A program made the translations under genes and the position numbers. From assembly GCA_964016885.1 (NCBI GenBank), contig OZ024750.1:27280001-27344000 (forward strand): 64,000 nucleotides of DNA. The letters run 5' to 3'. The notes beneath the pieces were generated by a model. The model was not told the origin of the DNA. It saw only the letters and a list, made by a program, of their open reading frames with translations, and did not search any database. Origin of the DNA: Eledone cirrhosa (Eukaryota). Shown in pieces: positions 54,701 to 57,536 of the stretch (positions are counted from its first letter, which is position 1; every line of letters starts with the position of its first letter).

Positions 54701-57536
54701 TATATATATATATATATATATATATATATATATTGTTATATTTGGGGAGGGTCATATTTGCGTAATATTGCCAGAATTAATAACAGAACACACTCACTGT
54801 TTGGTTGGTGTTCTGTTATTAATTCTGGCAATATTACGCAAATATGACCCTCCCCAAATATAACAATATCTGTTTCGACACACGATTTCATATAAAAAAC
54901 CTCGCAAAACTATATATATATAAATATATATATATATCATATTTTACTTTTGAACAGAAATAAGGAAAGAACCACCAAATCCCCTTTATGTCGTGTTAGT
55001 TGGGTGTATACCAATTGCGTTAGTTGCAGCTGTGTTTCCATTCATCTATTACAGGTATGTGATTTATTGTATCAATACAATTGTTAGCAGTAATTGGTGA
55101 ATTTCAATCTGTCTGATGTTTAGATTAAAATCAATAAAATTGTATTTTTCTTTTATAATTGTATATTGGGTAATTGACCTCCGTATGTTTCAGCGATGAG
55201 TTTTCAATATGAAAACTTATTTTCCCAGTTAGGTTGTTCGGTGAATATTAATGACCACGTATAATATTAAATGTACTAATTGCAGTCGTTTGACTAATTA
55301 TTGCCTCATAATTTGACCAGGGCATTTAAAAAATTTCTTTTTCACAAAAACAGAGTAATTGTGTTTGATTGGCTAAAACAATCTTTGCCATGATGTTATT
55401 TGAATAGAGATACATCAGGCATAAAGTTGGAAACTGTAAAGTATTACATCTAGTTCTCAATATTGTGAATTTCCTATATATTTCATATTAGTATTTTATT
55501 GTTTTGACTAGAAATATTTTGATTAGCTAATTACAATTTCTATAGCCCAAGCAATATCAAGTTTATTTTTTATAACGTTATAAAGTACAAAATGTCACGA
55601 GTCATAGGCATACTTATTGAAACAGTTCATAATTGTGTCTAATATGTTAGAATTTTTTTTAAAATATACTTAAAAATTACTCGTACGTGGCAGTGGTTTG
55701 ACCTTTCCGCCTCTGCCTTCTATTTTTGCACACGGCACTGGACAGAATTGTTTCTATATCATTCACTCTCATCTCGGGAACAATTTTGAATAGCGCCAGT
55801 TCGTAATTTGAACTCGGCAATTTTATATTCTCCAAGTGAAAAGATCTTTCTGACGAGAGTCTTTCTCCTTAATGGATGTCCGTAAGGACTATCCATTTAT
55901 CTTTGAGACTTGAAACCGTACGGTAAAGGTAACTACAGCAGGTACAGTGAATTTTTTAAAATTTATTTAAACATTTTTCTTATTTGCTAAACCTTGATTA
56001 TATATGTTCTGGCTCGTTAATTTATTAACCTGCCATAGAACCACATTGGCAAATGGTTGGATAATACATGTGTCCCTATATGTATTTTGCATGTAGGGAT
56101 ATATATTTTATTATATATATATATATATATATATATATATATATATATATATATATATATATATATATATATATATAAAACTACATACATATGTACATAC
56201 ATTTACGTATGTGTATAACTATAGATTTATAGATTTGTATATATGCATGCATTTATGTTTAAGTGTGTGTGTGTATATGTGAGTTGATTTATATTGTTTT
56301 GGGTAAGGAGAACATTTTGACTCCAGATTTTATTACCTAGGGAGATTAACTACAACAGTTTTTCCTCCTCATCAAACACCAACGCCGGCCTGTATCTGTA
56401 TACATGCGTGTGTATGTTCGTATGTATGTATAAGTATTTACCCACACCTTTCATCACCATTGCTACATTTTCTTCTCATTTCTGTTCATGTTATTCTTGT
56501 AACTGTTGTCATAGTTGAGTAGCCCTTAGTTTCATTTTCTTTGATTTCTTTCGTTTTTTTCTTTTATCTCTCTAAGGAATTCGTTGACAAGCTTCTTTTA
56601 TTTATTTTCTTCGTTTTCTTCATTTAAATGCGTCCACACTGGCTGTCTCAGTGACGTACAAATATGGCTTATAAATTTACCAAAGTAAAGAGACTTCCAG
56701 CACCCCAAATCTTCAAACTTCCACCTAACGGCCCTTGCTCCCTAATAACCCCTTGCTCGTAAACGCCCCCGGGAGTTCATATGCCCCCCCCCCCCCCCCC
56801 GTTGAGAACCTTTTGGTTTAGACAGATAGCATATTATATTGTATAATAAAAATCATCTATTTGGCCGAAGACCAAACAATTCCAATGGGGATGTAATTGT
56901 TTAAAACTAACGCAGGATAAACAGATAATTTGAGCACAATTCAAGGACACATATTTTAGGGCGAGCTAGATGTAAATATATCAAGGTCACTACTCATAGA
57001 AAGTTTGTCAGGGACGAAAGAATGTAAGTCAAGTTTCTTCTCAATGAGATATAAACTGTGTATGTGAAAGGATATATGTCATTACAACATGTCATTAAGA
57101 AAAGCGCGCTACCGCCTCTGCTAACCAAAACCTTTCGGAAATTAAATAATATCCTAATTATGAAGAAACTAAATATAATATTCTATTATAGCTTTTCACT
57201 ACTACATTAGTCCATCTCAAACCCCTCTGGAGATAATTTCCTGTTTAATAACTGTATAATTTACTGGAGTTGGGGTTTACTAACTGTATTCCTTTTCTGT
57301 TGTTGTTTAGGAGGAAGTCAAAGAAAGGTTCCGGGCATCACAGTGATGATAGTGAAGACGACAGCGTTGTTGATGATGACGATGACGATAATGATGATGA
57401 TGATGATAATGATGATGATGATAATAATGATGATGCCGTTAAGGGTGATAATGATGATGCCGATAATGATGATAATGAGGATGCCGATAGTGATGATAAT
57501 GATGATGCCGATAATGTTAAACAATTCCAAGGTTAA
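24642..57536 (+). CDS. Paralog 2 (apparently complete, 12 exons, 521 aa if all included): signal peptide, 7 full and 2 shortened EGF-like repeats, TM, Asp-rich tail
   Basis: Exons 24642-24705, 31119-31253, 31428-31544, 35844-35978, 40101-40235, 44360-44494, 44662-44778, 50471-50605, 50790-50924, 51085-51219, 54958-55054, 57311-57536 sum to 1566 nt, in frame with no internal stop. Confidence 0.8.
25610..26575 (-). mobile_element. Degenerate RTE-like LINE in intron 1 of paralog 2
   Basis: [10 protein letters not shown] (FADD-like motif) and [11 protein letters not shown] motifs, frameshifted. Confidence 0.7.
28800..28842 (-). ncRNA. Minimal hammerhead motif, family E (related copies near 5700, 35350, 39610, 43870, 49985)
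   Basis: Minus strand acgttg-CTGACGA-tagc(taataa)gctt-GAAA-ctag-TA-cagcgt; palindromic CTAG loop III; the stem II closing pair is mismatched. Confidence 0.55.
30050..30885 (-). mobile_element. Rearranged Penelope-like fragments (pre-GIY-YIG region and 3' ends)
   Basis: ORF 30465..30812 shares QSVMFxNTTPRxELAYKFR...IVERPGTS with the 8402 ORF; an inverted 3' piece lies at 30784-30880. Confidence 0.7.
30289..30330 (-). ncRNA. Minimal hammerhead motif, family F
   Basis: Minus strand acca-CTGACGA-t-gttgca(gatg)tgcaac-GAAA-ggtt-TA-tgat; stem I weak. Confidence 0.5.
31119..31253 (+). CDS. Paralog 2 EGF-like exon ([44 protein letters not shown])
   Basis: tttcag/GT, 135 nt, 8 Cys. Confidence 0.85.
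31428..31544 (+). CDS. Paralog 2 shortened EGF-like exon, 117 nt, 5 Cys ([38 protein letters not shown])
   Basis: Splice sites intact, in-frame 18-nt deletion, first Cys changed to Tyr; may be skipped. Confidence 0.55.
33690..33771 (+). ncRNA. Type I hammerhead motif, family A (partner at 34309-34389)
   Basis: Stem I tgtttc/gaaaca, core CTGATGA...GAAA, stem III accgt-a-acggt, GUA cleavage triplet. Confidence 0.75.
35844..35978 (+). CDS. Paralog 2 EGF-like exon ([44 protein letters not shown])
   Basis: tttcag/GT, 135 nt. Confidence 0.8.
36930..37268. repeat. ~340 bp near-perfect palindrome (copy at ~41189-41527)
   Basis: Arms of ~170 bp centred at 37099 with essentially no spacer. Confidence 0.9.
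37163..37229 (+). ncRNA. Type I hammerhead motif, family C (mirror 36969-37035 on -; copies 41422-41488, 41228-41294, 21377-21443)
   Basis: ttttat-CTGATGA-long stem II-GAAA-tgcgca-TA-ataaaa; palindromic stem III. Confidence 0.7.
37967..38048 (+). ncRNA. Type I hammerhead motif, family A (partner at 38586-38666)
   Basis: Same fold, stem III accct-a-agggt. Confidence 0.75.
40101..40235 (+). CDS. Paralog 2 EGF-like exon identical to 35844-35978
   Basis: Part of a near-perfect ~4.26 kb tandem duplication. Confidence 0.7.
42232..42313 (+). ncRNA. Type I hammerhead motif, family A (partner at 42851-42931)
   Basis: Copy of 37967-38048. Confidence 0.75.
44360..44494 (+). CDS. Paralog 2 EGF-like exon ([44 protein letters not shown])
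   Basis: tttcag/GT, 135 nt. Confidence 0.8.
44662..44778 (+). CDS. Paralog 2 second shortened 117-nt EGF-like exon
   Basis: Identical by eye to 31428-31544. Confidence 0.55.
45770..46045. repeat. Long (TA)n microsatellite, representative of dozens of (TA)n, (TG)n and (GA)n runs
   Basis: Directly visible; source of the [12 protein letters not shown] pseudo-ORFs. Confidence 0.95.
48351..48432 (+). ncRNA. Type I hammerhead motif, family A (partner at 48970-49050 has a G10.1A change)
   Basis: Same fold as above. Confidence 0.7.
50471..50605 (+). CDS. Paralog 2 EGF-like exon ([44 protein letters not shown])
   Basis: tttcag/GT, 135 nt; positional counterpart of 6182-6316. Confidence 0.85.
50790..50924 (+). 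CDS. Paralog 2 EGF-like exon ([44 protein letters not shown])
   Basis: tttcag/GT, 135 nt; counterpart of 6510-6644. Confidence 0.85.
51085..51219 (+). CDS. Paralog 2 membrane-proximal EGF-like exon ([44 protein letters not shown])
   Basis: tttcag/GT, 135 nt; counterpart of 6805-6939. Confidence 0.85.
53090..54405 (-). mobile_element. Paralogous copy of the degenerate Penelope-like element
   Basis: Same motifs in ORFs 54157..54498 and 53772..53990; same intron position as in paralog 1. Confidence 0.8.
54730..54869. repeat. 62-bp-arm hairpin made from a Penelope-like terminus
   Basis: atattgttatatttggggagggtc...gaacac / gtgttc...gaccctccccaaatataacaatat. Confidence 0.85.
54958..55054 (+). 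CDS. Paralog 2 transmembrane exon ([33 protein letters not shown])
   Basis: gaacag acceptor, CAG/GTATGT donor, 97 nt phase 1-2, hydrophobic stretch. Confidence 0.8.
57311..57536 (+). CDS. Paralog 2 last coding exon: Asp/Asn-rich tail
   Basis: TAG acceptor; frame of ORF 57270..57536; ends VKQFQG* as in paralog 1. Confidence 0.8.

Follow-up and report, generated by a model that had tools for sequence, protein, structure and literature searches.

We analyzed a 64,000-nucleotide (nt) stretch of Eledone cirrhosa DNA (contig OZ024750.1, positions 27,280,001 to 27,344,000 of the forward strand; hereafter the window, numbered from its first letter), in which self-comparison revealed a tandem duplication of ~18 kb whose second copy (copy 2) carries extra internal repeats. 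Our subject is the exon that encodes the extracellular stalk and transmembrane (TM) helix in each copy. As judged from their predicted exons, the TM exons belong to two tandem copies of a single-pass receptor with epidermal growth factor (EGF)-like repeats and a short acidic tail, of the SREC/MEGF10-like kind. EGF-like exons are followed by the TM exon and then by the last coding exon, the junction between the latter two being inferred from their matching phase. The window holds thirteen EGF-like exons, of which copy 1 has four and copy 2 nine; an 18-nt deletion marks two of the copy 2 exons. The window does not reach the 5' end of copy 1. The features are:

12164..12260, + strand: copy 1 stalk and TM exon (helix 12190-12258; Kyte-Doolittle 2.62)
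54958..55054, + strand: copy 2 stalk and TM exon (97 nt, phase 1 to phase 2; helix 54984-55052; best 19-residue Kyte-Doolittle mean 2.74)
14570..14807, + strand: copy 1 last coding exon (basic juxtamembrane cluster, one Tyr in an acidic context, Asp/Asn-rich tail, stop; phase fits the TM exon)
57311..57536, + strand: copy 2 last coding exon (Asp replaces the tail Tyr)
5427..19585, + strand: collinear duplicated block (partner 49716-59435), introns and 3' flank, used as the neutral yardstick
2186..2320, + strand: copy 1 EGF-like exon (135 nt, phase 1-1, 8 Cys)
6182..6316, + strand: copy 1 EGF-like exon a (partner 50471)
6510..6644, + strand: copy 1 EGF-like exon b (partner 50790; also covered by an IQ-TREE codon-run tree of 10 EGF exons)
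6805..6939, + strand: copy 1 EGF-like exon c, the last before the TM exon (partner 51085)
24642..24705, + strand: candidate first coding exon of copy 2 from a crude scan (ATG, 21-codon signal-peptide-like stretch, phase-1 GTAAGA donor)
31119..31253, + strand: copy 2 EGF-like exon
31428..31544, + strand: copy 2 degenerate EGF exon (18-nt in-frame deletion, 5 Cys left)
35844..35978, + strand: copy 2 EGF-like exon
40101..40235, + strand: copy 2 EGF-like exon inside a 4.26-kb internal repeat, 100% identical to the 35844 unit
44360..44494, + strand: copy 2 EGF-like exon
44662..44778, + strand: second degenerate EGF exon of copy 2 (same 18-nt deletion as 31428..31544)
50471..50605, + strand: copy 2 EGF-like exon a
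50790..50924, + strand: copy 2 EGF-like exon b
51085..51219, + strand: copy 2 EGF-like exon c, the last before the TM exon

The two TM exons differ far more than the DNA around them. In a gapless alignment of the 97-nt exons, 21 positions differ and 16 of the 31 full codons are replaced, with one further codon changed only silently, while the next 220 nt of intron hold six substitutions in 219 columns plus one indel (2.7%). These counts bear out the contrast that the initial annotation of this DNA had reported, as do the features it had pointed to in copy 2 (Gly15-Cys16, an extra Pro27 and Tyr30-Tyr31) and its statement that hydrophobicity is preserved. Its description of the whole exon as a membrane segment needs qualification: helix codons 9-31 hold 15 nt differences and 11 amino-acid changes, and the remaining 6 nt differences and 5 amino-acid changes fall in a 7-codon extracellular stalk. 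Codons 8-14 are identical between the copies, and the differences cluster around this identical 24-nt run (p = 0.016). Both exons are flanked by AG acceptors and GTATGT donors, outside which divergence falls at once (1/21 nt upstream, 3/100 downstream). Across 7,099 unmasked collinear non-coding columns, 232 differ (3.3%), with nine blocks ranging from 1.0 to 4.4%. A sliding-window comparison gave a maximum of 12 and a mean of 3.2 differences among 7,003 non-coding windows of 97 columns, against 21 in the exon; the binomial probability of at least 21 differences, multiplied by the number of windows, was 4e-8, the windows being somewhat overdispersed.

The excess is almost entirely amino-acid-changing. 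Silent divergence (pS) in the TM exon was 0.063 (1.5/23.8 sites) compared to a nonsynonymous divergence (pN) of 0.282 (19.5/69.2; Fisher p = 0.035), none of the 14 fourfold-degenerate third positions differed (P = 0.03 if their rate were 21.6%), and the differences were distributed 13/6/2 over the three codon positions (P = 0.007 for two or fewer third-position changes among 21). In pairwise GY94 fits under two frequency models (our own implementation, kappa fixed at 1.5), omega exceeded 1 for the TM exon (p = 0.0014 and 0.0058), for the helix alone (p = 0.0004 and 0.0032) and for five exons together (p = 0.0006 and 0.0008). With the four codons that carry two changes removed, 12 of 59.5 nonsynonymous sites still differed (p = 5e-7 versus 3.3%), and 5 of 37 did so when only the helix was kept and codons 26-30 were dropped as well (p = 0.007). 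None of the changes put a stop codon, a charged residue or N/Q/H into the helix, an outcome with a chance of 0.03-0.075.

The signal extends beyond the membrane segment. We compared five exon pairs, namely three EGF exons, the TM exon and the first 22 tail codons, excluding the low-complexity rest of the tail. Together they differ at 54 of 555 nt, with 44 amino-acid changes versus one purely silent codon (P = 0.0004), a pooled pS of 3/113 (2.7%, like the introns) and no differences at 57 fourfold sites. The nonsynonymous divergence was 28% in the TM exon, 16% in the proximal tail (nine differences, all nonsynonymous) and 7% in the EGF exons, where no Cys was changed in the three pairs. Both the EGF exons (p = 0.001) and the proximal tail (p = 8e-5) exceeded the non-coding rate, and the TM exon, which forms the peak, exceeded the EGF exons (p = 1e-5). 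Of the proposal in the initial annotation that the membrane segment may set specificity, the part that stood is an apparently selected excess of amino-acid changes, but this excess is not specific to the TM segment. Over ten EGF exons, we counted 44 extra amino-acid states versus 4 silent ones. Of 24 EGF differences, 14 mapped to copy 2, 7 to copy 1 and 3 could not be assigned, and as both copies thus bear changes, both were likely altered under selection.

We consider it probable, at roughly 70%, that the amino-acid differences in stalk and helix were fixed by positive selection after a recent duplication of the receptor pair. The best reading of the sequences is that diversifying selection acted gene-wide on a young immune-type receptor pair, with its effects concentrated on the stalk, helix and proximal tail. 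Relaxed constraint can raise amino-acid change to the neutral rate but no further, so the sequence itself must matter in the stalk, the helix and the first tail residues. Fast fixation, rather than an old protected island, is suggested because silent sites are not raised and non-coding divergence is even.

Several observations weigh against this interpretation. The omega estimates were unstable (20-84, with no upper bound for the helix), and such values can be raised artificially by multi-nucleotide mutations. The trimmed counts given above did not rise above the non-coding window with the most differences (p = 0.06-0.49). With only ~24 silent sites in the TM exon, the 95% interval on pS reaches 0.21-0.27, and simulations of this exon alone were not significant (P = 0.10-0.14 for at most one purely silent codon; P = 0.07-0.11 for at least 16 amino-acid changes). 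Changed residues showed no bias toward one helix face (p = 0.15-0.29), the TM exon did not exceed the proximal tail (p = 0.19), and the comparison is a pairwise one between the two copies in the window. Furthermore, the immune function of the pair, which we regard as likely, rests on family resemblance, and two related O. vulgaris paralogues (P0028 and P0170) also have a TM less conserved than its surroundings, with 87% identity in stalk and TM, 95% in the tail and 99% in the phosphatase segment. The TM divergence of that pair hints that such divergence may recur across the wider family.

Two explanations that the initial annotation had itself set against its reading, an older donor of the exon and intron homogenization around a neutrally evolving exon, are both argued against because they predict raised silent divergence, near 22%, compared to the pS of 0.063. 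A rival model holds that the duplication is older and under concerted evolution, so that conversion homogenizes introns and silent sites while selection preserves an island of divergence at the TM exon (a Teshima-Innan peak). This model also makes the TM exon a target of selection, by preservation instead of fast fixation. It is consistent with a divergence peak that coincides with the exon and with the wide interval on the exon's pS, and precedents exist in exon 5 of the red/green opsins and in Drosophila Pre28, where an exon is likewise far more diverged than the introns between tandem paralogues, one Drosophila peak showing a nonsynonymous excess (14/20) (PMC3924837, PMC2588116). An exchange among repeats is further suggested by EGF exons 6805 and 2186, which share their N-terminal residues. 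Silent sites linked to an old island should be old too, yet 0 of the 14 fourfold sites differ and the flanks are nearly identical; in contrast to the opsin and Pre28 peaks, silent sites within the peak are not raised and non-coding divergence stays even across 14 kb, the 3' flank included (1.0-4.4%). Nor do the edges of copy-specific insertions show a comparable peak. We therefore regard a preserved conversion island as unlikely.

It is less likely still that DNA- or transcript-templated conversion from a more distant third paralogue replaced this exon in one of the copies, the contrast then reflecting ancestry and not selection on the pair. Sharp boundaries limited to the exon and the clustering of differences around the identical 24-nt run (p = 0.016) would suit such an event, gene clusters of this type are conversion-prone (PMC13712769), and our donor search covered the window only. 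But the silent differences expected from a distant donor are nearly absent, the amino-acid excess recurs in the EGF and tail exons, and six 20-nt probes of the divergent clusters matched nowhere else in the window when both strands were searched with up to 3 mismatches allowed. We accordingly rejected an ectopic donor or template switch within the window.

The two copies might also be alleles of one hyper-polymorphic gene, assembled in tandem, the pattern then being one of balancing selection between alleles, which we judge highly improbable. In its favor, the window's first 2 kb have no collinear match in the DNA upstream of copy 2, and a non-coding divergence of 3.3% is not far above what very heterozygous marine invertebrates can reach. 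Against this, the contig is free of N gaps, a candidate first exon for copy 2 sits between the copies, and several insertions, as well as the number of EGF repeats, distinguish the two. Relaxed constraint, pseudogenization or a local mutational burst (multi-nucleotide or by compensated indels), with no selection at all, is hardly credible, since relaxation caps pN at the neutral 3.3% compared to the observed 28%, the excess outlasts the removal of multi-hit codons, and frames, splice sites and hydrophobicity are intact, even though four codons carry two changes, eight differences fall in codons 26-30 and two EGF exons of copy 2 are degenerate.

The relatives of the pair place it in a known type of receptor. 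A profile of ten EGF exons matched 2,270 representatives and 19 of 859 candidates, the latter largely MEGF10/draper-like and lectin-EGF-phosphatase proteins of molluscs; the nearest EGF repeats, in P0024 (O. sinensis 'protein draper') and P0028 (O. vulgaris CAI9733299.1), reached 59-68% identity per best repeat. The Pfam family EGF_STAB1-2 was found in 2 of 3 EGF exons scanned (E = 4.9e-5 and 0.008, below the curated cut-off), no Pfam family was found in the copy 1 tail, a protein search with EGF exon c alone returned no candidate (proteins of 78-2000 aa; weak evidence), and a search of solved structures returned one uninformative EGF-domain entry, 6u11. The Octopus receptors that combine fucolectin, EGF, TM and tyrosine-phosphatase parts (P0028, P0024, P0168-P0171) share the same 44-residue unit with eight cysteines, followed by a short stalk and a TM helix. 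They differ in that the window genes show no phosphatase exons, copy 2 has no detectable lectin exon and the tails of the window genes are short and acidic. By tblastn with 10 cephalopod-type relatives and all fetched proteins, no phosphatase exon was detected in the window, of which 6.5 kb follow copy 2, and a profile of F5/8 type C (fucolectin) domains built from 68 segments gave a best E of 0.85 in the window, which lacks the 5' end of copy 1 and where short split exons could escape. Both copies show features of short-tail SREC/MEGF10-like receptors (subgroup 1A type), with tandem EGF repeats, a single TM segment followed by basic residues, and a small domain-less tail.

In six phosphatase-bearing relatives (five from Octopus), TM identity tracks that of the neighboring tail, and stalk plus TM identity was 81-97% in 7 close pairs out of 15 and 52-65% in the 8 pairs between subfamilies. 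The window pair, at 48%, lies below the close pairs. Draper, MEGF10 and CED-1 carry cytoplasmic NPxY and YxxL/I motifs and an N-terminal EMI domain. Neither motif was present in either tail (78 residues in copy 1 and 74 in copy 2, Asp/Asn-rich after the basic cluster), the copy 1 tail having a single Tyr followed by acidic residues and the copy 2 tail having no Tyr, with Asp at that place. At the N terminus, a signal peptide for copy 2 may be encoded by the candidate exon at 24642-24705, which has a strong donor. The crude scan gave three start sites on the + strand including this one, the other two lying in simple-repeat or dispersed-repeat DNA, and one on the - control strand; it yielded no convincing exon at 24706-31118, and no EMI-specific search was made.

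A parallel in another mollusc class is the LG5R cluster of Biomphalaria, which contains scavenger class F-like receptors at a schistosome-resistance locus (PMC13712769). Its clustered single-pass genes share a signal peptide, MEGF10/SREC-like EGF repeats, a TM segment and a small domain-less tail, as in subgroup 1A, and show copy-number instability; a sister subgroup, 1C, has lectin and phosphatase domains (PMC13712769), as do the nearest relatives in Octopus. The parasite association belongs to the snail locus; the term 'positive selection' occurs 0 times in the main text of that paper, and we found no TM-focused selection reported there (PMC13712769). Both copies are presumably expressed, and the protein probably works like the SREC/MEGF10-type scavenger receptors clustered at snail parasite-resistance loci. 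Selection within a TM helix is known from primate tetherin (BST2), an antagonist of which is HIV-1 Vpu: selected codons are enriched in its TM and cytoplasmic domains (PMC2633611), and resistance to Vpu does not come from any one change (PMC2633611, PMC7764263). The two cases share signs of positive selection in a single-pass helix and the adjacent tail, spread along the helix with hydrophobicity kept (PMC2633611, PMC7764263). Tetherin is an unrelated type II protein with a coiled coil and a GPI anchor, whereas the window gene is predicted to be a type I protein with an EGF-TM-tail order; and selection on tetherin was seen across orthologues with a known antagonist, compared to young paralogues and a hypothetical antagonist here.

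If positive selection drove the divergence, the mechanism we favor is a contact in and beside the membrane that selection has changed, as the excess covers the stalk, the inner two thirds of the helix and the proximal tail with membrane character kept. Granted this, escape from a membrane-embedded antagonist of a pathogen or parasite, as for tetherin, would be the leading possibility, at less than even odds. Such distributed escape fits somewhat better than the redesign of one dimer interface, because changes are spread round the helix and no intramembrane charge is present. Two related candidates were rejected: a redesign of one helix face, for which the test of face bias (p = 0.15-0.29) gave no support, and a charged intramembrane residue as in adaptor-paired receptors, which is absent from both copies. 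A close second would be re-specified pairing with a host partner, plausible because a receptor with no signaling domain of its own would need a partner in the membrane, and because in copy 2 Cys16 and Ala20 are new on the helix face that bears Ala24 and the only tail tyrosine is lost. Cys16 may resemble the cysteine of the p75NTR disulfide dimer. Altered shedding, intramembrane cleavage or trafficking would be the least probable of the three.

By analogy, we tentatively sketch a bolder scenario, which we consider doubtful as a whole: the helix may be an arms-race front, where a membrane protein of a parasite or virus grips the helix to silence the receptor, and duplication with fast helix turnover yields escape variants, with copy 1 keeping the signaling tyrosine and copy 2 serving as a tyrosine-less variant or decoy. 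If true, an invertebrate would here show a conflict within the membrane of the kind known from tetherin.

The divergence peak is a real, statistically solid feature that combines a known receptor type and a known but rare phenomenon in a new setting. The helices of single-pass proteins are usually taken as interchangeable anchors, and clear selection inside them is rare, tetherin being the one case we could document. Here, two young copies supply their own neutral yardstick, against which amino-acid change in the anchor exon is eightfold in excess; receptors of this type have been linked to parasite resistance in snails. We found no report of such a pattern in cephalopod receptors in the literature searched, most subscription papers being outside its coverage. 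Mollusc clusters of single-pass receptors merit scanning exon by exon, and not of their ectodomains alone.

The EGF region has a history of its own. The EGF number of copy 2 has grown at 33500-44800 through duplications of an intron-plus-exon unit of ~4.26 kb, and since the 35081 and 39338 units match at 100% over parts of their length, this expansion would be very recent or ongoing. The two degenerate exons (31428-31544 and 44662-44778) share an 18-nt in-frame deletion between short direct repeats and a Cys-to-Tyr change, which leaves 5 Cys; exon 2186-2320 is their intact counterpart. Although not adjacent, exons 2186-2320 and 6805-6939 of copy 1 are identical in their first 18 residues, which suggests exchange among EGF repeats. 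Skipping of the 97-nt TM exon in copy 1 (6939/14570) is predicted to lead to a stop after four residues and hence to a soluble form, and in copy 2 (51219/57311) to place the tail exon in a long, Met/Ile-rich hydrophobic alternative frame.

Remnants of mobile elements surround the exons. Just upstream of the TM exon, in copy 2 only, two short elements are inserted in a TA microsatellite (54400-54930), with further copies at 29488-29640, 30038-30141 and 51745-51896. An inverted pair of GIY-YIG endonuclease fragments (7369-9510; Pfam E = 1.5e-4), which we take to be Penelope-like, occurs in copy 1 only, and reverse-transcriptase remnants on the minus strand (11142-12076) are common to both copies. 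The candidate first exon of copy 2 is flanked by GC-richer, decayed retroelement-like open reading frames (21950-24400 and 25500-26540), and fragments of those at 21950-24400 recur at 16129-16424 and 58851-58984. Finally, two direct repeats at 29190-29490 each end in a pyrimidine tract and CAG followed by a short open frame; they resemble acceptors, and an exon there is unsupported.

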